Shown here: positions 17,823 to 34,543 of the stretch, piece by piece
Position numbering within the stretch: the stretch's first letter is position 1
Layout of the letters: each line of letters starts with the position of its first letter
Assembly: GCA_023247895.1 (NCBI GenBank)
Contig: JAHFFP010000001.1
Coordinates: 1,029 to 65,028 of the forward strand
Direction of reading: 5' to 3'
From: Candidatus Omnitrophota bacterium
Lineage (GTDB): Bacteria; Omnitrophota; Gorgyraeia; Gygaellales; UBA12090
Length of the DNA stretch: 64,000 bases
The notes under the pieces: model-generated
Database searches by the model: none
Told to the model about the DNA's origin: nothing
What the model saw: only the letters and a program-made list of their open reading frames with translations
Position numbers and translations under genes: made by a program

Positions 17823-20794
17823 AGATTATTCTCTAATTTATCAAAACCATTTTTTAAACCAGCGCGTATCAAATTTTGTACTTCATGGATATCTTGCACT
17901 TCTAAAATATCCCACTTACCAAATTTCCCAAAATTATTTATCGCAGGAATCCATAATTCACGCGCTGTCTTAACTTTTATTGTTTTCTTGTCATCTTTTT
18001 TTCCTGTAACCTCAATGATTAAATTTAGAATTGATTTATCGGATAACTCAATTTTTGCAATAAAATCCGGGTTGTAATAATGTGCCGCGCCTTGGTGCTC
18101 ATATGGAATGGCAAAACCCAGATTTTGATTTTTGACATAGGATAAAACTTCTGGCATCTGCTCTAATCTTTTCGCAACCCCTTGCTCCCATTCTAGAGTA
18201 TCAGCTACAACGTAATTAACATGGCTCTTGGCTGTACCCTGTACTTCTTTTGTAGTCAAAAAATCCACATATGTAGTAGAACCCAGAGTATCATAAGGAG
18301 CAAGGACCGGAAGAATTCTTTTCTCTTTTTGTTCTGATAGATGCTCAGCTACAATCCCATGCTGAATCTTCGTTAATGCTCCAGAGAAGTATTCACCCAC
18401 AGACAAATAGCCAATTACCATACGATCCTTTAAAACAACATAACTCTTTACATATTCTTCGCAAATTTTCTTAAGCTGCGGGAATAACCAGTATTTTTCC
18501 GTGCCGTCAGCATCCATATAGTAATGTTTGAGTAAGGCCTCGGCAAGTCGTATTATTACTTCGCCATCCCTACGGCTCTTTATCTTTTCAAGCTTTTCTA
18601 CGGTTGTTTCTCCAATAATACCGCCAGACGTAACTTCAGTAGGTTCATTTTCAATTACGGTTTTAGATTCTTCCGTAAACCGAGCCTTCAGCTTTGTCTC
18701 ATCCAGCTCGTATCGATATCCTTCAACGCGCGGAAACGTAATCTCATATTGTTTGCGTTCTTGCAAAGAACAAACACGGTGAATAACTTTTGGCGGCTGT
18801 GGCGGAGTAACTCCTTCAGATTTTAAGAAATTGAACGGCACGCCATACACCTCAGCATATTCTGGCGTCATAAGACCAGTTCCTTTATCGACATCATATT
18901 CAACACGTCTTAAAGCCCTTCCTACTACTTGCTCACACAAAAGCTGAGTAGAAAAAGCTCTAATACCCAAAATATGAGTAACCGTATTTACATCCCAGCC
19001 TTCAGTAAGCATAGAAACAGATACTACGCATTTTATGTTTTCGCCTAGCTTACCCGGCTTTCCAACAGTATTCATTACCTCGCGCAAAAGTTCCTCATCA
19101 CTTGGCTCGGATCTTCCAGGAAAACGGTAACGGTATTCTTTATGGAAATCTTCAATTTCCTTAGTAAAGATTTTCTTAAACTCATCATTTATTTTTTCAC
19201 CACTTTCTAACTGGGCGCTATCAATAAGAAGCGTATTAGGACGATCGATGAACTGCGCGCCGTTTTCGTTTCGGAAATACTCCAAATTACCTTTTTCGAG
19301 TTTAATTCTTCCTGTTGCCGTCTCAATCTCATATCCAGCTATCCAACGATAAACCAATTCAGAAACTGCCGTATTATTACACACGACAATCATAACCGGA
19401 GGCATAACCGAAGGATTAGTCTTCTTCACGTCCGCATAGCGTAGATAATACTGCTCATAGTTGCCGTATAATGACTCTAGCGCCTCCTGTAATTTCGTAG
19501 GCAAAACGAGGGTCGTAAGATAATCTTTACCTCCGGTTTTTAAACCTTTCTTAGGCAAGTTATCGCGGACGTACAGCCATAAATTACGGAATTCTGGTTC
19601 CTCTTCTTGCCTAATGGTGTCCGATTCAATTGGTAAGCGCGGAATCTTCACTACGCCACACTCTAAAGCATCCAATAGTGAAAAATCGTAAACTGTCCAA
19701 GAGAAAAGCGTTCCTTCTTGGTAACCAGAGCCACTTAAGAAATACGGGGTAGCAGAAAGATCGATTATCCCATTAAGAGCAATCTTTTTAGAAAGAGCGG
19801 CTATCCCATTAAGCCAAACCCTCGCTGCTTTATTATTCTCATCTGCTTCTTGCCGTTCGTCTCCTACTAATCTTTCCTCACTTGGTTTCTCTTGATAGCA
19901 ATGATGAGCCTCATCATTGATAACTAGAATTCGCGGCTTCCCAAGCAAACTTTTAAACGCCCTATTTACCATAGTCATCGGAGTCTCTTTTACAGCTTCA
20001 TCTTTAATGATTCCTGCTACTTTCATAACTGACCCAACTTGAAAACGAGGGTTTTGTCGCAACTCTAACTGATGAAAATTTGTTATAATAATTACTGCTT
20101 GCTGAAGAAGCTCAAAATCCTGATATGAGACAATATCTCGCTTCCGATAATAGTTGCTTACGTCGTTTGGCAATAAAACATTAAGCCGATCCCGAATAGT
20201 AATTCCGGGAGTGATAATTGCAAAGGCGTCAGTAAATCGTGTATCTTGCGGATAACGAATCTTATTGAGTGTGTTATAAGCAATAATCATTGCCATAACA
20301 ACAGTTTTGCCTGAACCTGTTGCCATTTTGAAGGCCATACGGTATAACCCAGGATTTGCGTCAGCACTTGATTTCTTAAGTTCATTAATTATCCAACTTT
20401 CGCTAGACTTCTCTGCAGTCTCATTTATAAACATTAATGTTTCTATCGCCTCAATCTGACAAAAGAATAATTTATTTTCTCTAGTTTCATCGCGCCAATA
20501 GGCGAGAAGATCCCGGGAAGTTTTTGTGAGACCATGATAACCGCCATCTCTCCATTCCTTTACCTTAATCCTGATTTTATTTATAAACTCATTCTCTTTT
20601 TGGAGTTCGCTGCCAAAAGCTCCTTCAGCTATATTAAGCTCAAGTTGCTTCTCTTTTGTTTTGGCGCGCGGGATAGGAATGTAGAAACTACTTGGCCGAC
20701 GAAATTCTAAAACCTCATCAGTTATTCCACGCTCATCTGATTTAAAATGGAGGGTAGGTTCAAAATATGGGAAATTTAATATGGGCGATTTCAT
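17804..20794 (-). CDS. res: Type III restriction enzyme Res subunit (SF2 helicase + endonuclease)
   Basis: GSGKT Walker A, LVINDEAHH (DEAH box), helicase C motifs, ~1000 aa. Confidence 0.8.
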   Translation of the reverse strand: MKSPILNFPYFEPTLHFKSDERGITDEVLEFRRPSSFYIPIPRAKTKEKQLELNIAEGAFGSELQKENEFINKIRIKVKEWRDGGYHGLTKTSRDLLAYWRDETRENKLFFCQIEAIETLMFINETAEKSSESWIINELKKSSADANPGLYRMAFKMATGSGKTVVMAMIIAYNTLNKIRYPQDTRFTDAFAIITPGITIRDRLNVLLPNDVSNYYRKRDIVSYQDFELLQQAVIIITNFHQLELRQNPRFQVGSVMKVAGIIKDEAVKETPMTMVNRAFKSLLGKPRILVINDEAHHCYQEKPSEERLVGDERQEADENNKAARVWLNGIAALSKKIALNGIIDLSATPYFLSGSGYQEGTLFSWTVYDFSLLDALECGVVKIPRLPIESDTIRQEEEPEFRNLWLYVRDNLPKKGLKTGGKDYLTTLVLPTKLQEALESLYGNYEQYYLRYADVKKTNPSVMPPVMIVVCNNTAVSELVYRWIAGYEIETATGRIKLEKGNLEYFRNENGAQFIDRPNTLLIDSAQLESGEKINDEFKKIFTKEIEDFHKEYRYRFPGRSEPSDEELLREVMNTVGKPGKLGENIKCVVSVSMLTEGWDVNTVTHILGIRAFSTQLLCEQVVGRALRRVEYDVDKGTGLMTPEYAEVYGVPFNFLKSEGVTPPQPPKVIHRVCSLQERKQYEITFPRVEGYRYELDETKLKARFTEESKTVIENEPTEVTSGGIIGETTVEKLEKIKSRRDGEVIIRLAEALLKHYYMDADGTEKYWLFPQLKKICEEYVKSYVVLKDRMVIGYLSVGEYFSGALTKIQHGIVAEHLSEQKEKRILPVLAPYDTLGSTTYVDFLTTKEVQGTAKSHVNYVVADTLEWEQGVAKRLEQMPEVLSYVKNQNLGFAIPYEHQGAAHYYNPDFIAKIELSDKSILNLIIEVTGKKDDKKTIKVKTARELWIPAINNFGKFGKWDILEVQDIHEVQNLIRAGLKNGFDKLENNLWEEKG

Positions 20795-20797
20795 TAC

Positions 20798-21001
20798 TTA
20801 CTCTTCTAAAAAATAAGCCGCTTCTTTCTTAAGGGCTTTTGCAATCTTAACCAACGTTTCAATTGATGGCATTGAAAGACCAGTTTCGTAACGCGAAATA
20901 CTTTTCTGCTTCGCACTTATTTTTTTTGCAAGCTCAGTTTGATTCAAATCTAATTCAATACGGGCAATTTTTATCTTCTTCCCTAATTTTTTAGCGTCCA
21001 T
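20798..21001 (-). CDS. XRE-family HTH protein, probable R-M controller (C) protein
   Basis: LNQTELAKKISAKQKSISRYETG HTH; 67 aa; immediately upstream of res-mod. Confidence 0.65.
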   Translation of the reverse strand: MDAKKLGKKIKIARIELDLNQTELAKKISAKQKSISRYETGLSMPSIETLVKIAKALKKEAAYFLEE

Positions 21002-21020
21002 TCCATCTCCAAAATAATAC

Positions 21021-21050
21021 TTGACAATTATACCTTTTAAGGTATAATTT
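21021..21050 (+). promoter_or_regulatory. Consensus sigma-70 promoter (TTGACA-16 nt-TATAAT) overlapping palindrome aattatacctttt|aaggtataatt; candidate C-box operator / divergent promoter region
   Basis: Exact -35/-10 hexamers at 21021-21026 and 21043-21048; 11-bp perfect inverted repeat. Confidence 0.5.
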
Positions 21051-21318
21051 AGTCATTAAGGGAATATTTACATTCTAGACTTATTAAGGCTAATATATAC
21101 CTATCCGGTAATAAACGCAAGTAATTTATGGGTAACTCGAGTTTGATAGAGGGTAAGGTTCGGGGACAGTCCTCTGCGGGGACAGTCCTTTCGGTAACTT
21201 CGAGGGCAGACCCTTCCGTCCAGCATCTATTAGACGTAATCTCTTCTATTATAGCCGAAGAATACATTATGATAGCTAAACAAAACCCTAAAACATTTCA
21301 AAATGATGGAGGCACAAA

Positions 21319-23307
21319 ATGAAAGCAGCAATATACGCAAGATATTCTTCTGAAAATCAAAGCGAAAAGAGTATTGACGACCAGATAAGAGTATGCAAAA
21401 ACTACTGCAAAGAGCATGAAATTCTTATAAATGAGGAACACATTTATGTTGATGAAGCCCTATCCGGCTCCCTACTTAACCGCCCCGGATTACAAGCCTT
21501 GGATAAAGCCGCAGAAAACAAGGAATTTGAGGCTGTGGTTGTTGATGACCTCTCCCGCCTTTCAAGAAGTAACCACCAGATGCTGACACTGGTGCTTAAA
21601 TTCAATTATTATCAAGTTAAGATTATCTCGGTTGCAGATGGAATCTGCACTGACGATGAAAATTCGAAGTTAGGGATTCAAATGCGCGGCTTAATAAATG
21701 AGCTATACCTGGATGATTTGAGAAAAAAGACCCTGCGTGGGCTTGAGGGGCAAAAACTCCGCGGCTTTAGCGCCGGCGAAAAAGTCTATGGCTACTATAC
21801 CAAGCCCGTAGGCGAATTAAAACTTAATCGTAAAGGACAAGCCAAATACGAAGGTATGGTCCATAAAATAAACCCTGATGAGGCTGAAATCGTAAAAAGG
21901 ATATTCAAGGAATTCGCAGACGGTAAAAGCATCCAGAAAATAATGATTGGGCTTAACGAAGAAAAGGTTCCGACAAAAAGAAAACTTAACGGCGGATGGA
22001 ATACCTCAACCATATCCAGGATTTTAAAGAACCAGAAATATATCGGAATATGGAACTGGAGAAAAACAAAGGTTGTCAGGGACCCGATGACCGGGAAAAA
22101 GAAGAAATTTGCCCGTCCTGAAAAAGATATGATTCCTATTCAGCGAGAGGATCTGGTCATTATCGATAAAGAACTCTGGGAAAAAGTGCAAAAAAGACGG
22201 CAGGAAATAGAAGGAACATGGCCGGTAAGCAAGAAAAAACAGGCCTTCTACCAGCAAAAAAGCTATGTGCATACCAGCCCAAACCACTTATTTTCCGGCC
22301 TAATGAAGTGTAATTCCTGCGGCGGAGCAATCGTCCTCATTAGCGGCAAGGGCGGCGGTTATTACGGATGCTACAATACAAAAAGAAAAACCTGTAGTAA
22401 CCCTCTTACTATTCCCCGGAAAAGGATAGAAGAAATAATTATCAAGGAGTTACAAAATACAATACTAACCGCAGAGAATATCGAATATGTCTATAAGAAC
22501 GTGGAGAAACTTGCCGTGCAAGGTCTAAATGAAATACCCGAACTGGTTACGAAAAAGAAGGCGCAATATGAAAAAATACAGCAAGAGATACAAAATTACC
22601 TTAATTTTATCAGGATGGGTAATCTTTCCAAGGCAGTGGCTGATGCTTTAACAGAAGCAGAAAAGAAAAATGATGGGCTAAAGCAGGAAATCGGGTCTTT
22701 GGAGTTTCAGAAAGAGAATAATTTCAAAGCACCGCCAAAAGAATGGATAAATCACAGGCTGGAAAACTTAAAGGACACCCTGAATAAAAACACTATCTCT
22801 TCTTCCTTAGCGCTTAAAGAACTATTGGGAGCAATAACGCTTGAGCCGGTTTTAACCAAAGACGCTGATTTTTACCAGCTTTTTGCGGAAAACGAGAAGA
22901 ATTTCAAGCCCTATTACGTTGCCCATACAAAAATTCAAACCCTTGCGCTCTTAGATGAAGAGCACAAAGGTTCGAATTGGTGTCACTGGCGGAGAGTGGA
23001 GGATTTGAACCTCCGGTCGCCTTACGGCGACAACGGTTTTCGAGACCGCCGCATTCAACCGCTCTGCCAACTCTCCGAATTATATTTTCTTTCCTATAAT
23101 CAAAGCTGTATCAAATTCCGTATCTTTTCTTTTAATTTCGGACAACCCTGCATCCTTCATCCACGAACGCACTTGGGATTCGGTATAGGTATCGCCCTCT
23201 TCTGTGGCGACGAGCATATTCAAAGAAAAAAGGGCGCCAAAGGAGGGGCTCGTCCTATCTTCATCCATAATAAAATCCTGCACTACCACCTGCCCTCCGG
23301 GATTTAG
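21319..23307 (+). CDS. large serine recombinase (integrase). ORF has no stop until 23307 and reads through tRNA-Ser and into the convergent methyltransferase gene. The functional C-terminus is probably near 22980.
   Basis: MKAAIYARYSSENQS...SIDDQ (resolvase catalytic Ser domain), recombinase domain, CNSCGG...C zinc ribbon, coiled-coil. Confidence 0.75.
   Translation: MKAAIYARYSSENQSEKSIDDQIRVCKNYCKEHEILINEEHIYVDEALSGSLLNRPGLQALDKAAENKEFEAVVVDDLSRLSRSNHQMLTLVLKFNYYQVKIISVADGICTDDENSKLGIQMRGLINELYLDDLRKKTLRGLEGQKLRGFSAGEKVYGYYTKPVGELKLNRKGQAKYEGMVHKINPDEAEIVKRIFKEFADGKSIQKIMIGLNEEKVPTKRKLNGGWNTSTISRILKNQKYIGIWNWRKTKVVRDPMTGKKKKFARPEKDMIPIQREDLVIIDKELWEKVQKRRQEIEGTWPVSKKKQAFYQQKSYVHTSPNHLFSGLMKCNSCGGAIVLISGKGGGYYGCYNTKRKTCSNPLTIPRKRIEEIIIKELQNTILTAENIEYVYKNVEKLAVQGLNEIPELVTKKKAQYEKIQQEIQNYLNFIRMGNLSKAVADALTEAEKKNDGLKQEIGSLEFQKENNFKAPPKEWINHRLENLKDTLNKNTISSSLALKELLGAITLEPVLTKDADFYQLFAENEKNFKPYYVAHTKIQTLALLDEEHKGSNWCHWRRVEDLNLRSPYGDNGFRDRRIQPLCQLSELYFLSYNQSCIKFRIFSFNFGQPCILHPRTHLGFGIGIALFCGDEHIQRKKGAKGGARPIFIHNKILHYHLPSGI
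22987..23076 (-). tRNA. tRNA-Ser (anticodon CGA), CCA encoded
   Basis: GGAGAGT acceptor, long variable arm, GGTTCAAATCC T-loop, anticodon loop CT-CGA-AA. Confidence 0.8.
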
Positions 23308-24084
23308 GGCATTGACACATTTCACTATCAATTTCTTGCTTTTTGCAAATGAATTACTGTGGACAATCGCTGAAAGAAATATTAAGTCAAAGCCGCTGCC
23401 CAAGCTATCAGCATTGTAATCCCCTGCCACCACATCAATTTTATCTAAAAGGCCTTCTTTTTTAATATAGCTTCTGGTAAGCACAACGACGTTTGGCAAA
23501 TCGAAAGCTCTTACCCTTACGCCGTCTTTTGCCCGCGCAAAAGCCATTGCATACGCCCCTGAACCAGCGCCGACATCAAGCACTCGCATAACTTTTGATA
23601 AATCTAACATTGACACTATTTTTTTTGCCTGTGTCAGCGCGCGCTCATGCATTGCGGCAATAAAAGCAGTAAGCCACTCTTTTTCTCTCTTTTTTACCGA
23701 GACGTTTTTGCCTAAGACTGCCTTGCCTTTACGCACTGCCTGTGTCAAAGTACTCCAGCTATTCCAGAGGTTGGCTACATGCATAAGCCCTGCCATATAT
23801 TCGGGCTTTCCTTTCACCAGGAATCGCGACGTCAAAGGAGTATTGGAAAACTTCCCCGCCTTCTTCTTTAAAAGCCCTGTGGCACAAAGGGCGTTCATCA
23901 GGCGTCCGGCAGATTTTTGCGGTAATCGCAAAGCCTTCGCCACTTCCTCAGCGTCTTTACTCTTATCACCTAAAGCGCTAAATAGATCCAATTCATAGGC
24001 TGTAAGCAGAATCCGGCTTTCCTTAAATGCCATTGCCATCTGCATAATTCTATCAGCAGAGCAATTATTTCTTTCTAGTGCCAT
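23080..24084 (-). CDS. class I SAM-dependent O-methyltransferase (dimerisation + MTase domains)
   Basis: VLDVGAGSGAYAMAFARA glycine-rich SAM motif; OMT-like N-terminal wHTH dimerisation region. Confidence 0.7.
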   Translation of the reverse strand: MALERNNCSADRIMQMAMAFKESRILLTAYELDLFSALGDKSKDAEEVAKALRLPQKSAGRLMNALCATGLLKKKAGKFSNTPLTSRFLVKGKPEYMAGLMHVANLWNSWSTLTQAVRKGKAVLGKNVSVKKREKEWLTAFIAAMHERALTQAKKIVSMLDLSKVMRVLDVGAGSGAYAMAFARAKDGVRVRAFDLPNVVVLTRSYIKKEGLLDKIDVVAGDYNADSLGSGFDLIFLSAIVHSNSFAKSKKLIVKCVNALNPGGQVVVQDFIMDEDRTSPSFGALFSLNMLVATEEGDTYTESQVRSWMKDAGLSEIKRKDTEFDTALIIGKKI

Positions 24085-24096
24085 CTATATCAAGCC

Positions 24097-25722
24097 TCAC
24101 TCTTTTACATTAACCGCTTGCTTTTCATATACAAAAAGCGGGATATCTTTTACTAGCACCTGAAGCTTCCCCTCTTTCACAGGTTTGATTTCGCTGTTAA
24201 AGGCGGCATGATAATCCACGATATCCTTGCCAAATTCATATTTAGGGACTGCCTCGGTTATCACCGCTTCAGCCGATGCTATGCCGGATATAGAAACCGG
24301 AGTTTCTTCCTGGGTATCATTCCATATGACCCAAACAGGCTTACCCTGCGTAATGAATTTATAAACGTATATGCCGTCTTTTTCCTGAATTACTTGTATA
24401 GTATCCCACTCACCACCATCAAGAGTCTCGGACAATTTCTTAAAGGTAAAATAGGAAAGCTTTTTGGCGCAATAGCCGGGGTTGTTATCGCCATGGCCGT
24501 TATACAGCAACCCCATATAGCCGTCGGGGCCTTGGCTTACGGCATTATCCATAATGCTAAACCAAAATACTTTCTTTACCCCAAAGCTCAAAGGGAAAAC
24601 AATCCTGCGGAACAAATCTACGGCCTGTTCTTTTTCTGTTTGGCTTGATGCGTACCCTTCTACATCGCGCGGCCTTCCGCTATACACCGCGGTCTCAGTA
24701 ATCCAAATCTCCATACCCTTATATCCAAGGACATCTAAGCCCTCTCTAATCATTGCATAGGCATCTTTCATCACTCGATAGTTGCCTGTTGCATTCCCAT
24801 AAAAATGGTAATCAAAAATATCAACGTCTTTGCCAGTGAGCTTCTCTAAAACCCGCAGGTAATATGTGTGAAACAGCTTTTCCGTTTGTGAACCGACATC
24901 CGCCATTCCCGAAAGGACAACTTTTGCTTGCGGGTCTTGCGCCTTAATTGCCTTTGCGGTAATCTCAAGGATGTGGGTATAATTATCCACAGAAACATTA
25001 AACCAGCTCGCGATAGTTGCTGTGTCAGCCTGCGCATCAAGCACAAGAGGCACCCCCGAAGGAGGCGGCCCGGGAAGCTCATTATCAATTTGCCAGTATT
25101 TAATGGGGTTTTTTAGGCCCGGCATATCACTCAGGCCATCTCCGTCATATCGCTCCACCAAATCCTTGACAAACTGAATATATTTTTCTTCATCAACTAA
25201 TTTCAGATAGCTTGCCGGAGGGTTATACGTGCTTAGCTTTTGCAACTCCTTTGGAATGTTAGATGGTTGTATCGCAGCCCACCTGCGCACATCAATATTA
25301 GCTAAAATATGCATAGAGACGGGAATACTTCCATAATTACTATCCATCAATTGCTGCCAGGTTGCGCCTAACTCTTGCGGCGGAATAAAGGCATACATAC
25401 CCGGCCTCTCCCACCCTGCGCCAACGTCCTCGGCGTAACTATACGTTCCCCAAAGCTTGGGATCGGCTAAATTATCCGGGTTATGGGTGAAGATGTCTTT
25501 CGGGTAAATTCTACCGATATGAAAACCAAAAGGCACAGACGTTATAGGATTATGCCCGGGAGGAACTACCCCTGTAACCATTGGTTGATGAACAAAATCT
25601 TCTGGATTTTGTGATACCGGCTGACTCTCTGCAAAAGAAAGGTTCTCAAAGGCACAATAAAAGCTAATAGCAGCAAGGCTTACTACGATTACCAGGATAG
25701 ATTTTCTAGCCATCTTCTTCAT
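24097..25722 (-). CDS. secreted TIM-barrel glycoside hydrolase (clan GH-A-like)
   Basis: Signal peptide; IDNELPG (NEP acid/base) and ITETA (nucleophile Glu) motifs. Confidence 0.55.
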   Translation of the reverse strand: MKKMARKSILVIVVSLAAISFYCAFENLSFAESQPVSQNPEDFVHQPMVTGVVPPGHNPITSVPFGFHIGRIYPKDIFTHNPDNLADPKLWGTYSYAEDVGAGWERPGMYAFIPPQELGATWQQLMDSNYGSIPVSMHILANIDVRRWAAIQPSNIPKELQKLSTYNPPASYLKLVDEEKYIQFVKDLVERYDGDGLSDMPGLKNPIKYWQIDNELPGPPPSGVPLVLDAQADTATIASWFNVSVDNYTHILEITAKAIKAQDPQAKVVLSGMADVGSQTEKLFHTYYLRVLEKLTGKDVDIFDYHFYGNATGNYRVMKDAYAMIREGLDVLGYKGMEIWITETAVYSGRPRDVEGYASSQTEKEQAVDLFRRIVFPLSFGVKKVFWFSIMDNAVSQGPDGYMGLLYNGHGDNNPGYCAKKLSYFTFKKLSETLDGGEWDTIQVIQEKDGIYVYKFITQGKPVWVIWNDTQEETPVSISGIASAEAVITEAVPKYEFGKDIVDYHAAFNSEIKPVKEGKLQVLVKDIPLFVYEKQAVNVKE

Positions 25723-25726
25723 ACAC

Positions 25727-26080
25727 CTATTTATTCACTACGGGCTCTTTTTGCGTTTCTTCCTCTTTCATTTCCTTTTTTAATTCAGCAACTTCTTTCT
25801 TCAGGGCGCTTAATGCCTGTTTTAATTCGGCTATCTCGCTTCGCAGCTCGGCTATATTTGCCTCGGTTTTTGCGATACGGTTTCCTGTCTCATCAAATCT
25901 TCGCACGGTATAGGTTTTAAAACCCTCGGTAGCCGTAAAGCTGCCCTTCGTAACGGTCTTTTCTCCCTCCGGCCTCTGAACCGATACTCCGGACTTCTTC
26001 TTATAATCCTCTGCCGAAGCCAACATCGTTGATGTGAAGAAAACAAATGCTAAAAGAGAAACAACCTTTTTATTCATCAT
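25727..26080 (-). CDS. secreted small coiled-coil protein
   Basis: Signal peptide + C-terminal heptad-rich segment. Confidence 0.4.
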   Translation of the reverse strand: MMNKKVVSLLAFVFFTSTMLASAEDYKKKSGVSVQRPEGEKTVTKGSFTATEGFKTYTVRRFDETGNRIAKTEANIAELRSEIAELKQALSALKKEVAELKKEMKEEETQKEPVVNK

Positions 26081-26159
26081 ATGAGCCCTCCCTTTTTCGC
26101 TTCAACTTTTGATAGTAGGTAGCTTTTATTTCCTGAAGGGGAACTTTTTCAGGCATAGA

Positions 26160-26660
26160 TTAGCTTTTGGCAAGCTCTTGTTTTGCTTTTTCGGCTAAAA
26201 GCTGCTGCACCAAGGCATCAATCTCTGTTTGGGTAAGCCTTCTGTCGGAACGGAGTGCTTTTCGGCTTGATTGCGGTTGATTTTCTCCAACAATAACAAC
26301 TCTCACAGAATCTCCGGTTTTGATCCTTCTAAGCTCTGAGGGGCTATGCCTTGTTTTTCCCACAATAACCACTCCGCTTGCCGGAACAGGCTTTCCGGCT
26401 TTGCTGATAGGAGTAGGCCCAAAGAATACGCAGATACACCTGCCTTGCGGCCAATAGGCAACATCACCCACGTCAACCTCAGAAGTTAAGACGATATCAT
26501 CGTAAAGCGCTTGTGTATTCGTCTCAAAATAGACTTCATCTCCCCACGTGGAAACAGCCGAATCCAAAGGCAAAGCCTTAACAATTTCCCGCGCGGTCAA
26601 ACCATTGTTGAGCTCAACCACGAAACAGCAATTTTTAGTCTGAAATGACACTTGTTGCAT
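26160..26660 (-). CDS. hypothetical protein
   Basis: 166-aa ORF. Confidence 0.4.
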   Translation of the reverse strand: MQQVSFQTKNCCFVVELNNGLTAREIVKALPLDSAVSTWGDEVYFETNTQALYDDIVLTSEVDVGDVAYWPQGRCICVFFGPTPISKAGKPVPASGVVIVGKTRHSPSELRRIKTGDSVRVVIVGENQPQSSRKALRSDRRLTQTEIDALVQQLLAEKAKQELAKS

Positions 26661-26994
26661 AGGCTACCTTTTATGAAAATAGATTCAACCCAGATTTTGC
26701 AATAGGTTTCGAGAAAAATGGCCCAAATCCTTGACAAGACAAGGCATGCGAGCAAAAGTACCACAGGCGTATCCTGTGCGATACGCCGAGGACACTTTTG
26801 TGAGCATAACGCAGTATTGGCAAGGATTTAGAGACATTTTGCCGAAATCCTATTGCAAATTCTGGGTTCAATTCCTTCTTACCCCGGTGCCTAAATTATA
26901 CGCCAAACAAAAACCCCCTGCAAGGTTATTTATTGCAAGGGGTTTAACAACGGCGCTATACTCACTCGGCTTATCTCCTTACAACAACTGAGTT

Positions 26995-27189
26995 CTACCT
27001 CTGAGGGAGCAGGCGATTCTTCAAAAAAGCAAAACCAGAGCCAGATTTTAAATATCTTTCAAAACTTACAGCTTGAGTTTTGTCCTTAAATACTGTATAT
27101 GTTTCTAAATTCCACGGTGCATAATTTTTGCTATATCTGGTTTCGTTATGATTATGCTCTTTAATCCTATTTTCTAAATTTTCTGTCAA
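26995..27189 (-). CDS. GIY-YIG nuclease-family small protein, N-terminally degraded or non-ATG start
   Basis: ...RLTENLENRIKEHN...YSKNYAPWNLETYTVFKDKTQAVSFERYLKSGSGFAFLKNRL matches the short GIY-YIG family. The frame stays open upstream (EYCLHF...ISGAIIYRL) to a stop, with no ATG. Confidence 0.45.
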   Translation of the reverse strand: MTENLENRIKEHNHNETRYSKNYAPWNLETYTVFKDKTQAVSFERYLKSGSGFAFLKNRLLPQR

Positions 27190-27383
27190 ACGATATATAA
27201 TCGCTCCGGATATTTCTAACTCTTTAAAATGTAAACAGTATTCATGCTATTCTGCTACGCCCTTTAGAATATTTAAAATCATGGTAGGGCTTCGCAGCAA
27301 TTCTTTTTCGCCATACTCAAAAAAAACTTGTTGCTTTGAAGCCCTACCAGCTATTACATATTGAAGGGCGAAAAAAGAACGGC

Positions 27384-27723
27384 GTTCTTGCGACGAAGTC
27401 AGAAGTTTTTACCGCTAAATTCCTTTGCTAAATTTTTAATCTGCACCGCCCTGTCGGGCTCCCACATCTCCCGCGCCCCATTCGCCCCGTTTAGGAGCGG
27501 GGCTCATTCGGCGCCAGCCTGGGCCGGCTGGCTTCTTGCTCATGCAATGCGGGTTCAGCTTTGCTTGTGTTTTGTAGCCGGGTGCGGGCGGCTGCAAAAC
27601 ACAGCGTCCTCACTCCAAGAATTTATTACAGGTAAAACGATTTTTTTAATAAGAGTTCGTCCGCTCTCCCGCCCCAACATCTTCGCCATTATAAAGAACA
27701 AAAATTTTGATGTCAGAATATTA
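27384..27723 (+). repeat. GC-rich, hairpin-dense 340-nt element, copy A (inverted copy at 29419-29758, ~99% identical)
   Basis: Direct comparison. Internal stems include gccccg...cggggc, gccagcc...ggctggc and tgttttgtagccg...cggctgcaaaaca. GC content is far above the flanks. Confidence 0.8.
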
Positions 27724-27734
27724 AAAAATGAGCT

Positions 27735-29111
27735 TTATCCAATTAAATTAGTACTTTTGTTATGGTCGCTCTCATTGACTAAAATTTTCTTTTCGGCTAA
27801 TGGTCCAACGAGTAGAGATAAAACTCGTCCATAGCTTTCACAATCCACTATTGTTACAGCGATCCCTTCGCTTTCCAGTTTCGTCTTTATTACTAATACT
27901 TCTTTAAGATCAGAATGGCGAAATACTTCTTTTAAATTTCCCTGATTTTTAAAAGAATAATAAATCCCTAAAATTATACCAATAAATGAGACTAATTCAT
28001 AACCCGTAAATGGAATATGAACATGAAGTAATCTGTGAAGAAAAACGGGTAAAAAAGCAACGCCACATAAAAAAATACTCCAAATAAATATGATTTTTGT
28101 CACTATATTATCTAAATATTCTATAGCAGATTTTTCCGTATCTCTCCCCGGTATAGATAATCCAAAATGCTTTAATTTAGGTACTAATTCTACGGGGTTA
28201 AATACCACTGCCGTACAGAAATAAGCAAAGAAAATAATTGATACTACCCACACGAGATATGAACCCCACGTCCCCGGCGTTAAAATATTACCTATAATAC
28301 CGGATGCTGAATTGACATGCTTACCAGAAAATACCATTACAGTAGCCGGAAATAATAATATACTGCTGGTAAAGTAAATTGGAAGTATCCCTCCAAGGTT
28401 AAAAGGTATCGTCATCGAAAGATCTTTAGAATTCTTTCCAGGAATACTTACTGATATTGTTTTATATTTTCTTAACATAAAAATAATTAGTCCAACAAAT
28501 GAAATAAATAACAATAACCCTAAGCTTGCTTTTAATAGACTTGAATTAAGGACCTCTTTTACCATCTGAGGTATAAGATGCCTAAACTTCATTAGTAGCC
28601 CCGAAATAATAAATAATGATATTCCGTTTCCAATTCCATATTTATTGATTTGATTCGCCATCCAAATAATAACCAAAACTCCGCCAGTAATAGACAAAAT
28701 GGATAACATTCGAAAAATGATACCAGGGTTACTAACTAGATAAATTCCATGAACCTTCCCAAAACTTTCCATCCATAGAGACAGAAAAAAAGCTTGAATT
28801 AGGCTAAGAAGAATGACTCCTACATATATAAATTGATTAATTTTTCTAATTCCTAGGGCACCATTTTTATATCTATTTCTCAAGGGGGGTACCACAGCTA
28901 TTAATAACATGAATATAATATGAGTGGATAGATAAGGCATAATATCTAAAGAAAAAATGGATATACGCCGCATAATTAACTCTAAGTAACCCATATTAGG
29001 AATGTTAGTAAGAGATTTTAAAGCAGCGTAACTCACTCCGGACACAGGAATAAATCTTCCAGCCCAGTAGAGCAGTAAAAACAATAATGTTATGCAAATG
29101 CGTTTGTACAT
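27735..29111 (-). CDS. SecY-family translocon protein paralog with ~60-aa C-terminal cytoplasmic extension
   Basis: AGRFIPVSGV, LDIMPYLSTHIIFMLL, YGIGNGISLFIISG, GGILPIYFTSSILLFPATVM and FCTAVVFNPVELVPKLKHFGLSIPG align with canonical SecY signatures. Confidence 0.75.
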   Translation of the reverse strand: MYKRICITLLFLLLYWAGRFIPVSGVSYAALKSLTNIPNMGYLELIMRRISIFSLDIMPYLSTHIIFMLLIAVVPPLRNRYKNGALGIRKINQFIYVGVILLSLIQAFFLSLWMESFGKVHGIYLVSNPGIIFRMLSILSITGGVLVIIWMANQINKYGIGNGISLFIISGLLMKFRHLIPQMVKEVLNSSLLKASLGLLLFISFVGLIIFMLRKYKTISVSIPGKNSKDLSMTIPFNLGGILPIYFTSSILLFPATVMVFSGKHVNSASGIIGNILTPGTWGSYLVWVVSIIFFAYFCTAVVFNPVELVPKLKHFGLSIPGRDTEKSAIEYLDNIVTKIIFIWSIFLCGVAFLPVFLHRLLHVHIPFTGYELVSFIGIILGIYYSFKNQGNLKEVFRHSDLKEVLVIKTKLESEGIAVTIVDCESYGRVLSLLVGPLAEKKILVNESDHNKSTNLIG

Positions 29112-29136
29112 TGCCCCCTCCTATAAATAGTGCTTC

Positions 29137-29334
29137 CTATTTTCTTCCTACCAGCTCATCTATCGAAACCCCAAAAACATCCGCTAATCTTGAAAGGGTC
29201 TCAAATGTTGGATTTTTTGCTTTTCCTACTTCTATTTTAGAAATTGTGTTATATGAAATATCGGTCAGTCGGGCAAGTTTTTCTTGAGATAATTTCTTTT
29301 GTTGTCTTAGCTTTTTCAGATTTTTACCTAACAT
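29137..29334 (-). CDS. XRE-family HTH transcriptional regulator
   Basis: LSQEKLARLTDISYNTISKIEVG. Confidence 0.7.
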   Translation of the reverse strand: MLGKNLKKLRQQKKLSQEKLARLTDISYNTISKIEVGKAKNPTFETLSRLADVFGVSIDELVGRK

Positions 29335-29418
29335 TTTGGGCTTGACTCAAAGTCAATTACATATTATAATACTCGTATTATAAAGTATACTTTATTTTTT
29401 CTATTATACCACTAAAAC

Positions 29419-29758
29419 TAATATTCTGACATCAAAATTTTTGTTCTTTATAATGGCGAAGATGTTGGGGCGGGAGAGCGGACGAACTCTTATTAAAAAA
29501 ATCGTTTTACCTGTAATAAATTCTTGGAGTGAGGACGCTGTGTTTTGCAGCCGCCCGCACCCGGCTACAAAACACAAGCAAAGCTGAACCCGCATTGCAT
29601 GAGCAAGAAGCCAGCCGGCCCAGGCTGGCGCCGAATGAGCCCCGCTCCTAAACGGGGCGAATGGGGCGCGGGAGATGTGGGAGCCCGACAGGGCGGTGCA
29701 GATTAAAAATTTAGCAAAGGAATTTGGCGGTAAAAACTTCTGACTTCGTCGCAAGAAC
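29419..29758 (-). repeat. GC-rich 340-nt element, copy B (inverted orientation)
   Basis: Reverse complement matches 27384-27723. Confidence 0.8.
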
Positions 29759-29760
29759 AC

Positions 29761-29814
29761 CGCCAGTCAAGACGACCCTGCGATTGGGCGATGTAATCGT
29801 AGGGTCGTCTTGAC
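29761..29814 (-). terminator. perfect 20-bp stem hairpin immediately 3' of tRNA-Ser(TGA)
   Basis: cgccagtcaagacgaccct...agggtcgtcttgactggcg. Confidence 0.5.
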
Positions 29815-29904
29815 TGGCGGAGAGGGTGAGATTTGAACTCACGGTGGAGTTGCCCCCACAACAGTTTTCAAGACTGCCGCTTTCAACCACTCAGCCACCT
29901 CTCC
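29815..29904 (-). tRNA. tRNA-Ser (anticodon TGA), CCA encoded
   Basis: GGAGAGG acceptor, long variable arm, GGTTCAAATCTCACC T-arm, anticodon loop CT-TGA-AA. Confidence 0.8.
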
Positions 29905-29980
29905 AATTTTCCCTATATTTATTACTATGAAAATTGGATATCGAACCCCGCGTTCTATGCGGGGTGAAATATCTGCGTTT

Positions 29981-30643
29981 TTATAAAAATAACTGCTTAA
30001 ACACCGCCACAAAAATATCTTTGCTTATCTGGTAAGAGCCGTTAAAGAAGGAAAGGAAGGAAAATTGCTCAAAGGCGCTATTAAGAAAACCGGCCACAAT
30101 AATTGCGTCTAAAATATAAATCCATGAAAACCCAAACAAATACCCTGCCTTAAGATTATCTCCCTGTTTCAAACGCAGGGTCTTTGCCGAAAACACAAGG
30201 TGCAGTGATATGCTAAAACCTATCATAAAGAGAAACATCGTTATATACTCACGAATATCCATCAAAGAACTGAGTATTAAATATATTGAGAAAATAAGGA
30301 TAGTGTATATGGGCAGCACAAACGGCGCGACCTTTACCAGGGGCGCGAAAAAACGCACCAAAACCTCAACTATTCTTTGGCCTTTCTTATAAAGAATCGC
30401 TGGCTCTCCTATAAACAGATACGCTCCCACAAAGCTCACAATCCCCCAAAGAAAAGAATGGCTCACTGACGGCTCTACCTTCAATAGTTCTTGGCCGAAA
30501 TTTACGGTAACCGCGTACACCACCGGAAGCAACAATATGCCGATGGTAAGCTTTAGAAAGAGCGTAAAGAACTCCTTAATTTTATTCTTAGAAGGAGGCT
30601 TAAGATCGCTAAATAACTTATCTTGTGATTCTATCTTTTCCAT
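29981..30643 (-). CDS. hypothetical polytopic membrane protein
   Basis: 220-aa ORF with 5-6 TM helices; overlaps serS 3' end by 26 nt. Confidence 0.45.
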   Translation of the reverse strand: MEKIESQDKLFSDLKPPSKNKIKEFFTLFLKLTIGILLLPVVYAVTVNFGQELLKVEPSVSHSFLWGIVSFVGAYLFIGEPAILYKKGQRIVEVLVRFFAPLVKVAPFVLPIYTILIFSIYLILSSLMDIREYITMFLFMIGFSISLHLVFSAKTLRLKQGDNLKAGYLFGFSWIYILDAIIVAGFLNSAFEQFSFLSFFNGSYQISKDIFVAVFKQLFL

Positions 30644-31898
30644 TGAAATAAGGCCTTAACACCTCAGGGATTACCACGGTCCCATCAGGCTGCTGGTAAT
30701 TTTCCAATATGGCAACCATTGTCCTGGGAAGAGCAACCCCTGATCCGTTTAAGGTATGCACATATTCTGTCGTCGTGCGTTTTGCGTCCTGCGTCTTGCG
30801 TCTAAATTTAATATTTGCCCGTCGGGCCTGAAAGCTCTCAAAATTGCTGCAGCTTGAAACCTCAAGCCATTTATCAATACCCGGGGCGTATGCCTCAAGG
30901 TCGTAGCATTTGCTTGCGGCAAAGCTTATATCGCCGCTTGAAAGCATCACCACCCGATACGGCAAACCTAAAAGCTGTAACACTGTTTCCGCGTTTTGCA
31001 CCAGTTTCTCCAATTCATCATATGAGCTATCCGGTGTAACAAACTTCACCATTTCAACTTTATCAAACTGATGCACCCTGATTAAACCACGAGTATCCTT
31101 GCCATAAGAGCCAGCTTCTCTTCTAAAACAGGCGGTATAGGCGGTGTAATAAATAGGCAGATCTTCTTCATTTAAGATTTCATCGCGAAAAATATTGGTA
31201 ACCGGCACCTCGGCTGTCGGAATCAGGAACAAATCATCGTCTTTAAGCCGGTACATATCCTCTTCTAATTTAGGAAGCTGCCCTGTACCGGTCATTGATG
31301 CCCGATTCACTAAAAAAGGAGGAAAAATTTCTTTATAGCCGTGCTTTGAGGTGTGTAAATCCAGCATAAAATTATACAACGCCCGTTCTAAGCGCGCGCC
31401 GTCGCCTTTATACAGGATAAAATTAGAGGCGGCAAGCTTTGTCCCGCGCGTAAAATCAATAATATCCAAATGCTCTGCTAACTCTATGTGGCTTCTGGCA
31501 TTGTGAATCTTTTTGGGCTCTCCCCAACTACGCACAATCTTATTTACGCTGGCATCACCCACAGGGATAGACGCGTGCGGGATATTGGGAATGGTAAGCA
31601 GCATACGGTTCACAATAGAGTCATACTCCTTTACTTCCTTCTCTAAGGTATCTATGCGCGCGGCGATTTCTTTCATTGAGGCAATTTTTTCCTTAGGGTC
31701 TTTTTTTTCCTTTAAAAGCGCGGTAATCTCATCATTTGCCTTATTCTTGCGGGCGCGTAAATCCTCAAGCTCAAACAGAACCTTTCGCCTTTTATCATCC
31801 ATCTCGATAAAATTATTCAAATCCAGATTGAGGTTACGCTTTTTTATCGCATCCCTTACTAAATCTATATTTTCTCTGATAAATTTTAAATCTAACAT
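30618..31898 (-). CDS. serS: seryl-tRNA synthetase
   Basis: MLDLKFIREN start, N-terminal coiled-coil arm, class II aaRS motifs (FRREAGS, GSG). Confidence 0.9.
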   Translation of the reverse strand: MLDLKFIRENIDLVRDAIKKRNLNLDLNNFIEMDDKRRKVLFELEDLRARKNKANDEITALLKEKKDPKEKIASMKEIAARIDTLEKEVKEYDSIVNRMLLTIPNIPHASIPVGDASVNKIVRSWGEPKKIHNARSHIELAEHLDIIDFTRGTKLAASNFILYKGDGARLERALYNFMLDLHTSKHGYKEIFPPFLVNRASMTGTGQLPKLEEDMYRLKDDDLFLIPTAEVPVTNIFRDEILNEEDLPIYYTAYTACFRREAGSYGKDTRGLIRVHQFDKVEMVKFVTPDSSYDELEKLVQNAETVLQLLGLPYRVVMLSSGDISFAASKCYDLEAYAPGIDKWLEVSSCSNFESFQARRANIKFRRKTQDAKRTTTEYVHTLNGSGVALPRTMVAILENYQQPDGTVVIPEVLRPYFNGKDRITR

Positions 31899-31903
31899 AA
31901 ACC

Positions 31904-33358
31904 CTATCCTTTTACTACACCCACCGGTCTCATCCGGCAAACCCTCTTGGAGATTCCGGCGTTATGCACCACATCCACCACATCGTTCACATCTTTATAG
32001 GCAAGCGGAGCCTCTTCCACGATTGTGCTACGGCTTGAGGCCATCACGTATATCCCTTGTGCCTCAAGATCCTTGACTAACTTGTGGGCGTCAAAAGCCT
32101 TGGTTGCCGCGGTGCGGGATTTTACCCGCCCTGCGCCATGGCAAGTGGAGTAAAATGTTTCAGCTGCTTTCTCGGTTCCCACCAGTAAATAGGAATTCCT
32201 CCCCATATCTCCCGGGATAATTACAGGTTGCCCTGTTTCCTGGTATTCCTGCGGTAATTCCGGATGCCCCGGAGGGAATGCCCGCGTTGCCCCTTTACGG
32301 TGCACGCAAAGTGTTTTTTCCTTGCCGTCAATCACATGCTTCTCAAGCTTGGCAATGTTATGGGCAACGTCATAAATCAAATCCATACCTATGTTCTGCC
32401 AGGACTTATTCAAAGTGCGCTCAAAGGCCTTACGCGCCAGATGCATCAAACACTGCCTATTATTCCAGGCATAATTTGCCGCCGAGCGCATTGCTGAAAG
32501 GTATTGTGTAGCCTCAAGAGAATCTATCGGAGCGCAGGCAAGCTGCCTATCGGGAACATTAATCCCTTATTTTTGCATTGCCCTCATCATAACTTTAAGG
32601 TAATCATCGCATACCTGATAACCAAAGCCGCGGGAGCCGGAATGAATCATCACGGTTATCAAGCCTTCACTTAAACCAAATACGTCTGCGATATCACTGT
32701 CATAAATCCTGTCAATAACCTGAATTTCCAGAAAATGGTTGCCGCTTCCCAGAGTGCCTGATTGCGCCTTGCCTCTCTCATACGCCCTCTCTGACACCGC
32801 CGAGGGGTCAGCTCCGGGAATTGCCCCGCGCTCTTCAGTTACCTCCAAGTCCTCTGCCACCCCATAACCTTGCGCAACCGCCCACTGAGACCCCTTAACC
32901 ATTATCTGCTGTTCTTCCTTTTCACTTACCTTAATCTCGCCTTTTGAGCCTACGCCTGAAGGCACCAGATGAAACAGGCTTAAGGTTAATTCCCTGATTC
33001 TATTCTTTACTTCTTCATATTCAAGATTTGTTTTAACAAGCCTCACTCCGCAGTTGATATCAAACCCAACTCCCCCGGGAGAAACTACGCCGCCTTTTTG
33101 CGGGTCAGTTGCCGCAACCCCGCCTATGGGGAAACCATATCCCCAGTGTATATCCGGCATAGCAAGCGACGCGCCTACAATTCCCGGTAAAAACGCTACA
33201 TTTGCCACTTGCTCTAGCGCCTTATCTTGACGGATATCTTTAAGGAGTTTTTCATCCGCATAGACTATACCGTCGACACGCATCCCTGGAATAGCCTCTT
33301 TGGGAATCTTCCAACGATAGTTATCTATCTTTTTTAAGCTTTCGTAGGTATCCTGCAT
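31904..33358 (-). pseudogene. rtcB: RNA-splicing ligase RtcB interrupted by in-frame TAA (32567-32569) at a position occupied by Tyr in homologs
   Basis: HSGSRGFGYQV and HGAGR motifs. The two ORFs (263 aa + 195 aa) are in the same frame, 75 nt apart. Readthrough translation ...MQK*GINVPDRQLACAP matches RtcB. Confidence 0.75.
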
Positions 33359-33367
33359 TTTTTCTTA

Positions 33368-33667
33368 TCAAACCAAAAACTTTACCCCGGTTTGAAACTT
33401 ATCTGCTTCTTGTTTCTGCCAAACCACCCTCACCAAGGCTTTAATATGCTCAGACTGCTCACCGTGAAGGTCAAACTCCACATTTAAAATAGTTCCTGAT
33501 GCCAAAGGCTGCGGCAACATAAGGCATAGTCCGCCTTCGCTAATATCCCTGATTAGGCCTGTTTGATATGAAGGCATTACTACCGAATAGGTAACGTTAG
33601 AAATTAACTCTACCCTCTGAGAAGACCTGCGTTCAGCAGAAATCTTTTTCTCTCGCTCAGACATCAA
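33368..33667 (-). CDS. PilZ-domain protein (c-di-GMP binding)
   Basis: RRSSQR...DISEGGL (RxxxR / DxSxxG PilZ motifs). Confidence 0.65.
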   Translation of the reverse strand: MMSEREKKISAERRSSQRVELISNVTYSVVMPSYQTGLIRDISEGGLCLMLPQPLASGTILNVEFDLHGEQSEHIKALVRVVWQKQEADKFQTGVKFLV

Positions 33668-34073
33668 AAATCACCTTTGCCTCATAGCCATCCTTAACCT
33701 GTTTAAATTCCAATTCATGATAGGTTACCGCTTTAATTTCGGTTTTCATCTTATCAGGCGCTTTATCGCCCCACATAATTGCCTTGAGCGTGTTTTGGGT
33801 TACACCTTGAATTGAAAACTCAACACCCACAATTTCGGTAACACTAAATTGATACAGTAATTCCTGAAGCCATTGACGCAGGAGTTCATCATAGCTGTCT
33901 GCCTGCACAGAGATTTCCAGCTTTTCCTTCGGTTTTATACCGCTGGTCTCGGCAATAACCTCAAACATCCCTTTTGCGGCATTCACAAAGAGTTCCTCAA
34001 CCGTATTCCCATAAACCCTTATGCCCACATCAGCGGTATGCTCAAAAAACTTGTATTTTTTCCTCACTCCCAA
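33657..34073 (-). CDS. archease (RtcB cofactor)
   Basis: FEHTADVGIRVYGNTVEELF... archease signature; adjacent to rtcB. Confidence 0.8.
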   Translation of the reverse strand: MGVRKKYKFFEHTADVGIRVYGNTVEELFVNAAKGMFEVIAETSGIKPKEKLEISVQADSYDELLRQWLQELLYQFSVTEIVGVEFSIQGVTQNTLKAIMWGDKAPDKMKTEIKAVTYHELEFKQVKDGYEAKVIFDV

Positions 34074-34339
34074 TCAATAGCCTCTTATTAATCCCAGATT
34101 TTGCATTAGCAAAATATGGGATTAACCTGAATTTTCATTATTATAGCATATTTTTATAATTTTCAATTTGAAATTTCTAATATATACCAAAGAAAAATCC
34201 CCTAACCTATTCAGTTAAAGGATGCGTTTGCCCCTCGCTTAAACGTGCCGAAAATCTCTTTGACATTTTCGGCACAAGCTCGGGATAAATTCGCCCACAC
34301 AACTTACGCAAGGCCTTACGTAAGTTGTGGGCTCATTTA

Positions 34340-34412
34340 TGGGCCATGTAGGAGTCGAACCTACGACCTTGACATTAAGAGTGTCCTGCTCTGCCAATTG
34401 AGCTAATGGCCC
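34340..34412 (-). tRNA. tRNA-Lys (anticodon CTT)
   Basis: GGGCCAT acceptor, anticodon loop CT-CTT-AA, GGTTCGACTCC T-loop; followed by two strong hairpins at 34250-34330. Confidence 0.8.
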
Positions 34413-34543
34413 GAATTTTAATCTTCTTTTCGTTATAAAAAACCCAACCAGATACTAATTTTTGTGAAGCTTACTTATATATTATTCTATTAACGCTGTA
34501 AAGGACGATTTTAAAAAAGACCGCGGGGGAGGAATACCTTGGC

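Follow-up and report, generated by a model that had tools for sequence, protein, structure and literature searches.

The 64,000-nucleotide (nt) stretch of DNA analysed here, which we call the window, comes from a Candidatus Omnitrophota bacterium (contig JAHFFP010000001.1) and carries a small gene cassette enclosed by two inverted copies of a GC-rich sequence. We refer to the two copies as the arms and to the sequence they represent as the module. A repeat search of the window delimits them as 344 nt each, 99% complementary to one another and 1,695 nt apart, with the left arm at 27380-27723 (nhmmer E = 4e-95) and the right arm at 29419-29762. Read from its outer to its inner end, which is its sense direction, the module lies on the + strand in the left arm and on the − strand in the right arm, the latter being also the strand of the adjoining transfer RNA (tRNA) gene and of both genes in between. 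Pairwise alignment of the arms shows two mismatches, at 27383/29759 and 27416/29726, and their homology extends outward by about 6 bases with small indels, up to about 27373/29768.

The first gene of the cassette encodes an XRE-family helix-turn-helix regulator of 65 residues (29137-29334, − strand; Pfam HTH_3, E = 2e-19). It is followed by the cargo gene, a SecY paralog of 458 residues with a C-terminal DUF2007 (27735-29111, − strand; Pfam SecY E = 3e-50, DUF2007 E = 3e-5). A gene for tRNA-Ser(UGA), found by ARAGORN and Rfam at 29815-29904 on the − strand, abuts the right arm. In the window and in at least two related lineages, the second, inverted copy of the module lies just past the SecY-paralog cargo, so that the 1.7-kb cassette forms the loop between long inverted arms, here beside tRNA-Ser(UGA).

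The G+C content is 50% over the whole arm, 58% between 27440 and 27680, and 64% in a conserved core of 156 nt, as compared with 32% in the segment between the arms, 41-42% in the flanks and 41.6% in the window overall. A 39-nt probe from the arm matches the 64-kb window twice, once in each arm, where the chance expectation is 0, and neither nhmmer nor a covariance model of the core (R1) detected any more copies of the module, either in the window or in other loci with SecY paralogs.

Repeats of this kind can come from mis-joins during assembly, and both arms contain long open frames (118 and 157 residues), which would fit an assembly artefact or a duplicated protein-coding segment. The first is ruled out by independent data. 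A Logan unitig with an identical SecY paralog measures 1,755 nt, or 1,695 + 2 × 30 nt, and its two termini are perfect 30-nt inverted repeats matching the inner arm ends; a second unitig, representing a variant at least 90% identical, has 1,756 nt. Unitigs break at the arms. Further, the same architecture is found in independent metagenome assemblies of diverged lineages. The coding alternative is ruled out as well: the open reading frames of the arms have no Pfam match, the conserved core holds frame-shifting indels of 1 nt, and no frame is conserved among the window and the related loci L120 and L124, whose longest open frames are unlike in both frame and sequence. The frames chosen by gene callers likewise vary from one module copy to the next. 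We consider this explanation, in either form, hardly credible. An earlier note on this DNA, made from the letters alone, had described an element in two nearly identical inverted copies, more GC-rich than its flanks. This description stands, except that it counted one mismatch where alignment gives two, and the copies are not the mere assembly duplicates for which it had allowed.

A search with the translated arms against 1.84 billion representative proteins returned 21 matches, about 19 of which are plainly translations of the module, 54-210 residues in length. These ‘hypothetical proteins’ (P0138-P0157) are mostly metagenomic, one of them carrying an NCBI accession (TRZ95283.1, locus D4R78_04065), and are probably annotation errors. 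Two of the matches, P0137 and P0146, are tandem-repeat proteins and were discarded as spurious. The module also has no counterpart among catalogued RNAs: Rfam gave no match in the arms at E ≤ 1 (window positions 20000-36000), no arm match at E ≤ 5 in the related loci L120, L122 and L007, and, at gathering thresholds over the whole window, only 5 tRNAs. The families thus covered include RNase P, tmRNA, SRP, 6S, riboswitches, T-box, group I/II introns, OLE, GOLLD, ROOL and HEARO. No match came from viral contigs, plasmids or phages searched with DNA, nor from a viral scan at the protein level.

The evidence for a conserved fold comes mainly from the 156-nt core (27458-27613 on the + strand in the left arm, 29529-29684 on the − strand in the right arm; 189.5 bits each with R1), in which a junction helix encloses hairpins A and B together with a small hairpin, and hairpin C follows on the 3' side. 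In the left arm, on the + strand, hairpin A spans 27484-27503 and pairs GCCCCGTT with AGCGGGGC (GCCCCG.../...CGGGGC). Hairpin B (27513-27532; GCCAGCC/GGCTGGC) is followed by CTTCTTGCT and was scored by a terminator scan as terminator-like on the outer-to-inner strand. Hairpin C (27566-27603) has a 15-bp stem with one G.T pair and the loop GGTGCGGG. In both the minimum-free-energy and the consensus folds, a long-range closing helix joins GCGACGAA (27390-27397, + strand) to TTCGTCCGC (27656-27664, + strand); in this helix and in adjacent segments complementarity is kept between the window and L120, with different sequences.

To analyse covariation, we used the core of three full-length copies (window, L120, L124), which are 75-85% identical. 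In these, 98.3% of the pair cells are standard pairs, and 10 of the 39 pairs show double changes that preserve pairing. Three of them fall among the eight pairs of hairpin A, which in L124 reads GGCCTGCG/CGCAGGCC, and two among the seven pairs of hairpin B, which there reads GGCCGCC/GGCGGCC; the other five, out of 15 pairs, belong to hairpin C and were seen among all three copies. None of 500 column shuffles reached the observed values for pairing and compensation (0/500), and sliding the pairing partners by 1-3 columns lowered pairing to 32-49%. Hairpin C can also be read, in a known frame, in 10 translated copies, where only the types TT..AA and GC..GC occur (7 and 3 copies; 8 and 4 with the window and L120 added). 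In an eleventh translated copy, P0156, the change in this hairpin is possibly uncompensated. Over 236 nt of the arm, the identity of the window to the lineage of protein P0006 is 85%, as compared with about 73% for the DNA of the cassette. Judged by these patterns of substitution, the hairpin fold is shown to be under selection.

The folding energy of the arm is modestly better than that of shuffled sequences (z = −3.1 for the outer-to-inner strand, −2.4 for the other), and by a hand tally the outer-to-inner strand has most of the G.U pairs (about 8 cells, with 3 favouring the other), which weakly suggests that this is the strand that folds. Other members of the family have an additional hairpin on the 3' side, formed by CTCCCGCC/GGCGGGAG in L120, by ATGCCGC/GCGGCAT in L007 and L125, and by GGCTCGCC/GGCGAGCC in L124. 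We established this complementarity by direct reading of the sequences, since MAFFT and RNAalifold mis-aligned the stems. Stretches that are conserved and single-stranded in the module include CUCCCACAUCUCCCGCGCCCC and CUUCUUGCUAAUGCAAUGCG.

We conclude that a module of about 300-400 nt, non-coding, rich in GC and in hairpins, and lacking an Rfam entry, is present here as two inverted copies, of which the 344-nt element is one. The earlier note had regarded the reading frames inside the element as unlike proteins and had recognised no known RNA family, both in agreement with our scans and with the lack of a conserved frame. The stems it named are all present, although the long one, given as 13 bp, is the 15-bp stem of hairpin C with its one G.T pair. 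With the conserved structure seen in the covariation analysis, its label of a candidate non-coding RNA or novel terminal-inverted-repeat element is supported, and both halves of it hold as descriptions.

The module is a dispersed family in uncultured bacteria, and its usual place is directly upstream of the promoter of an XRE gene, the first gene of an accessory or mobile cassette. In L124 a third full copy (171 bits with R1), 75% identical and in reverse orientation, lies beside Fic, ORF6N and MerR genes. L125 contains the 3' part of the module, a terminator-like hairpin after it, the conserved promoter region, an XRE homolog and then a different cargo, a regulator of the HTH_11/PafC type. 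XRE homologs occupy the same position in L007, L120 and L125, and every copy of the module is preceded by a strong hairpin.

The junction of module and XRE gene is informative. At its inner end the arm turns AT-rich, with the conserved sequence AACAAAAATTTTGATG and, within it, the palindrome CAAAAATTTTG (27697-27712, + strand; right-arm copy 29430-29445). AACAAAAATTTTGATG is conserved in the window, L007, L120 and L125, where it lies directly upstream of GTRGTATAAT and the XRE gene, and its only exact matches in the window are the two arm copies. We read this region as the putative −35 element and operator of the XRE promoter. In the XRE-linked copies, homology runs unbroken from the module, via the palindrome CAAAAATTTTG and its variants, into GTRGTATAAT and the XRE gene, which identifies the downstream arm as an inverted duplicate of the XRE upstream region. 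This duplicate ends between the −35 and −10 elements of the XRE promoter.

A promoter-like site of sigma-70 type that is close to consensus (CTGACA-17-TATAAT, 11 of 12 positions matching) points outward across the right arm (29426-29454, + strand); its mirror copy runs on the − strand, from 27716 to 27688. Its conservation extends to L007 but not to L120 or L125, which makes a promoter function doubtful.

The module could also be a free-standing gene for a trans-acting non-coding RNA that was duplicated here by chance, with no role for the inverted arrangement. Its conserved fold and single-stranded stretches, its occurrence in single copies elsewhere, the strong hairpin ahead of each copy and the terminator-like hairpin after the copy in L125 would all suit such a gene. 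However, we see no conserved promoter upstream of the sense strand, the linkage to XRE suggests a cis or local role, and an inverted pair with the same inner boundary and loop length in three lineages, as described next, is hard to call incidental. This explanation therefore seems distinctly unlikely to us.

Within the P0006 lineage (64% amino-acid identity), the arms of L121 are cut by the contig end at 119 nt and are 100% identical, with a loop of exactly 1,695 nt. L120 and L122, which come from two different metagenomes, have full upstream and downstream arms of this lineage, identical over 630 nt. L007 (84% identity) shows a 28-nt inverted repeat at its contig ends and a diverged upstream arm. 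The inner boundary of the arm is at nearly the same homologous position in the three lineages. Mismatches between the arms of one genome thus amount to 2 of 344 positions in the window and 0 of 630 in the P0006 lineage, whereas arms of different lineages are 15-25% divergent, with indels common to both arms of the same genome. This combination indicates that the arms evolve in concert, as repeats undergoing flip-flop recombination do. In the P0006 lineage the end of a degenerate insertion sequence (IS; DUF772 and DDE_Tnp_1_6) is found outside both arms, which also points to their homogenisation.

Long, identical inverted arms in concerted evolution are what one would expect if the repeats served to flip the cassette. 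The result would be a programmed switch, of the on/off type or of orientation, acting on the accessory SecY or on read-through into the genes nearby. The route would be homologous recombination, as at the sap locus of Campylobacter fetus, or a site-specific invertase, and a serine recombinase gene is indeed located 6 kb away; moreover, the SecY paralog of L004 and L005 is flanked by an inverted repeat of 45 nt, unrelated to the arms. Yet the same sequences face the cassette on both sides, so that an inversion changes nothing locally. The recombinase is of the large integrase type and reads into tRNA-Ser(CGA), as one would expect of an integrated element separate from the cassette. We did not see both orientations, in contigs that would be unable to reveal them. 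A switch of this kind appears quite improbable.

The cargo gene belongs to a distinct family of SecY paralogs with DUF2007 at the C-terminus, which comprises 13 database proteins (P0002-P0014) that are 33-84% identical to the window protein, as compared with about 31-37% for canonical SecY; the nearest named homolog, at 57% identity, is from a Candidatus Omnitrophota genome. A profile scan of genome contigs with the SecY-paralog alignment yielded one family member, which was already in the set, and a scan of metagenome contigs yielded only canonical SecY (about 33% identity). Near the SecY paralogs we saw no SecA2-like partner. Their contexts are varied and often mobile-looking (window; L002, L004, L006, L008, L009, L118, L119). 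The gene directly adjoins tRNA-Ser(UGA) in the window and tRNA-Ser(CGA) in L006, and is about 300 nt from tRNA-Lys in L004.

In L004 and L005, the SecY paralog has tRNA-Lys and a decayed fragment of tRNA-Lys on one side and archease on the other. The window has tRNA-Lys next to archease, and its cassette is found 4.5 kb off, after tRNA-Ser. The same two genes being contiguous in one case and split in the other, the cargo gene has moved within an otherwise syntenic neighbourhood. The 45-nt inverted repeat of these two loci (L004 5909-5953/7585-7629; L005 480-524/2156-2200) is 93% complementary and encloses the SecY paralog alone; its right arm ends with the archease start codon, and the decayed 3' fragment of tRNA-Lys is just outside its left arm. 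An origin of this repeat from the archease leader was rejected, as the upstream region of archease in the window is not similar, and a resemblance between its sequence CAAAATTCG and CAAAAATTTTG of the arm is too weak to use.

The main rival to an RNA explanation is that the arms act as DNA, namely as the ends of a non-autonomous mobile element. They would be repeats resembling MITEs (miniature inverted-repeat transposable elements), with hairpins recognised in trans by a transposase or recombinase, perhaps as single-stranded DNA, and their inverted pair would mobilise the cassette of XRE and SecY. We find here two non-coding repeats around passenger genes, XRE and the SecY paralog only, with no transposase inside. 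The module is dispersed over mobile-looking contexts (Fic, ORF6N and MerR genes, IS insertions, tRNA-adjacent sites), the SecY paralog occupies different sites in syntenic neighbourhoods (after tRNA-Ser(UGA) in the window, in the gap between tRNA-Lys and archease in L004), the inner arm boundary is nearly the same in three lineages, and composites bounded by MITEs are already established (PMC13367494, PMC4133298, PMC3934969).

Set against this, the module itself lacks terminal inverted repeats: its outer and inner ends are not inverted repeats of each other. By eye, none of the four arm junctions, outer or inner, shows a target-site duplication, whether direct or inverted as in the pattern left by duplicative inversion, though an old event may have erased it and no empty site was compared. 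Only two copies are present in 64 kb, the others known so far coming from other contigs and metagenomes, and no cognate transposase was found in or beside the arms of the window. The unbroken homology from the module into the XRE promoter and gene fits an inverted duplication of the XRE upstream region, not two discrete insertions. On balance we regard ends acting at the DNA level as unlikely, while giving them more weight than any other alternative to our preferred explanation.

The insertion sequence in related loci does not supply the missing transposase. A DDE_Tnp_1_6 fragment upstream of the arm in L120 raised the possibility that the arms are the ends of this IS and the whole a composite transposon. 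However, the three contigs that carry the fragment share only about 415-429 nt and then diverge, which places the end of the IS about 90 nt short of the module and makes it an insertion in its own right. L126, with the IS inside a hairpin loop, allowed its ends (GAGGCTGTCCG... and ...CGGACAGCCTC) to be defined, and its right-end sequence CGGACAGCCTCTGG has no match in the window. The degenerate copies consist of a DUF772 N-terminal part and an 84-residue DDE_Tnp_1_6 reading frame, the latter conserved as a small reading frame of its own in about 10 clusters (L126 3420-5164; L120, L124 and L125 1 to about 415). The insertion points of this IS appear to lie in GC-rich hairpins or next to them: in L126 it interrupts the hairpin CCCCGTTAGATC/GATCTAACGGGG in its loop, and in L124 and L125 it cuts the module copies.

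The explanation that we tentatively favour is that the arms are a structured module, probably an RNA, belonging to XRE-led mobile cassettes, which here has acquired an inverted duplicate, the two copies being kept identical by recombination. As a single strand, the module would fold so that a closing helix surrounds a junction of GC-rich hairpins, and selection would maintain this fold. Its active form would most likely be an RNA transcribed from outside toward the cassette, which for the right arm is the sense of tRNA-Ser, XRE and the SecY paralog. The arms would be homogenised by recombination or gene conversion and, as they are inverted repeats, the cassette would be flipped in the process, as in plastid inverted repeats. 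With both arms pointing inward, transcription from either side would meet the same structured domain, and the two ends of a read-through transcript, 5' and 3', would be complementary and could pair into a duplex of about 340 bp. The inward-facing arms and this potential duplex lead us to favour a cis-acting role in insulating or processing the cassette transcript, which is the least supported step of the proposal.

Several observations weigh against this explanation. The sole strong promoter-like site in the arms reads on the opposite, outward strand, and the minimum free energy is slightly lower for the inner-to-outer strand. The covariation was obtained from three full-length copies, together with indirect evidence at the protein level. 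Hairpin C is absent from the L007 lineage and the 3' hairpin from the window copy, which implies that not every substructure is essential and also fits a loosely constrained repeat element. The SecY paralog occurs without the module in L002, L008, L009 and L118, and in L004 it has the unrelated 45-nt inverted repeat in its place. The active form could be single-stranded or cruciform DNA rather than RNA, and we infer inversion and mobility only indirectly.

A bolder version of the favoured explanation would make the module a new class of large structured RNA (about 300-400 nt), functionally coupled to the XRE regulators that small mobile cassettes carry in Omnitrophota-like bacteria. With its inverted pair, the transcript would then form a panhandle of about 340 bp for processing or control, or the RNA would act in moving or flipping the cassette, as guide or bridge RNAs do for some insertion sequences. 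We offer this as speculation and think it rather unlikely.

Should the module prove to be a functional RNA, the few large bacterial non-coding RNAs of unassigned function would gain a family of some size, backed by covariation, from a poorly studied uncultured lineage and with a clear genetic partner in the XRE regulator. If it works at the DNA level, it represents a new kind of cassette boundary, by which an accessory SecY channel and other cargo move between tRNA-proximal sites without a transposase of their own. Either way, about 19 ‘hypothetical proteins’ in the databases appear to be mistranslations of the module, and their annotations can be corrected.

Several features in the neighbourhood of the arms deserve mention. 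Between the right arm and tRNA-Ser is a 26-bp hairpin (29760-29820, no strand assigned), in which the 3' end of the tRNA (CCGCCA; CCGCCAGT) pairs with the outermost bases of the module (TGGCGG; ACTGGCGG). The module's 5' end ACTGGCGGTG occurs in L124 too, away from any tRNA gene, so that this complementarity may be a built-in feature of the module or a coincidence. Just outside the left arm is a decayed gene for a small GIY-YIG nuclease (26995-27255, − strand). Read by eye, its N-terminal part (MNTVYILKS...) has an in-frame TAG and is out of frame with the 64-residue reading frame that matches Pfam GIY-YIG, and a terminator-like hairpin follows the gene. Between this remnant and a cyclophilin-like gene lies an inverted repeat of 45 nt, 78% complementary (26683-26727/26828-26872), with a T-loop-like motif GGGTTCAAT, which may be a decayed tRNA or debris of an attachment site.

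The serine recombinase reading frame mentioned above (21319-23307, + strand; Resolvase, Recombinase and Zn_ribbon_recom domains) stays open across tRNA-Ser(CGA) (22987-23076, − strand) and looks like the end of a separate integrated element that has this tRNA gene as its attachment site. On the other side of the cassette, the gene for the RtcB ligase (31904-33358, − strand) has a single in-frame TAA at 32567-32569 (...MQK*GINVP...), at a position where other RtcB sequences lead one to expect a tyrosine codon; it is a nonsense mutation or a sequencing error. The RtcB homolog in L004 has an intein instead.

Among known systems, integron gene cassettes come to mind, which carry an imperfect palindrome (attC) of 55-140 nt after each cassette, in one orientation, and depend on the IntI integrase. 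We rejected this assignment for the module, which at about 300-400 nt is multi-branched and occurs in inverted pairs, with no tyrosine integrase nearby. In composite transposons of the Tn5/Tn10 type each arm is a complete IS with its transposase, which is not the case for either arm here. More similar are two-copy, repeat-bounded composites such as TIME-COMPs, the pair of 439-bp Acinetobacter MITEs around an integron, and mobile insertion cassettes (PMC13367494, PMC4133298, PMC3934969, PMC5444012). Like the MITE-bounded ones, the arms are paired non-coding repeats of several hundred bases, members of a dispersed family, that surround passenger genes without an internal transposase. MITE-bounded composites, however, have the short terminal inverted repeats of a known transposon and target-site duplications, and we found neither in the module; the lack of terminal repeats of its own and of ends matching a known IS sets it apart. 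Its upstream copy is, moreover, continuous with the XRE promoter and gene, and its multi-hairpin fold is under selection.

Invertible segments such as fimS, hin and the invertons of Bacteroides have short inverted repeats (about 10-50 bp) and a dedicated invertase next to them. In contrast, the arms described here measure 344 nt (at least 630 nt in a relative), and the nearest recombinase is the large, integrase-type serine recombinase 6 kb away.

On the RNA side, GOLLD, ROOL and the HEARO/IscB omega-RNA are large orphan structured RNAs of mobile elements near tRNA genes. The module shares with them a GC-rich, multi-helix structure of several hundred nucleotides, covariation, and a location in mobile DNA and at tRNA-proximal sites. 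It differs in that Rfam has no match for it at E ≤ 1-5 and that no gene for IscB, TnpB or a recombinase is adjacent. GOLLD, ROOL and HEARO RNAs are not known to occur as inverted pairs that enclose a cassette. In ribosomal RNA operons, complementary sequences on either side of an RNA pair into processing stems, which are cut by RNase III. By pure analogy, the complementary arms could form a long duplex in a read-through transcript starting at the tRNA gene, although they are far longer than processing stems and internally structured.

The long inverted repeats of plastids and of the Campylobacter fetus sap region are homogenised by flip-flop recombination. They contain genes or the 5' ends of genes, and the consequence of their inversion is known (sap) or neutral (plastids), whereas the arms here are a non-coding structured module for which we infer inversion. 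The likeness lies in their evolution: in both cases, arms of hundreds of bases are identical within a genome and diverged between genomes, and recombination between them would invert the segment in the middle.

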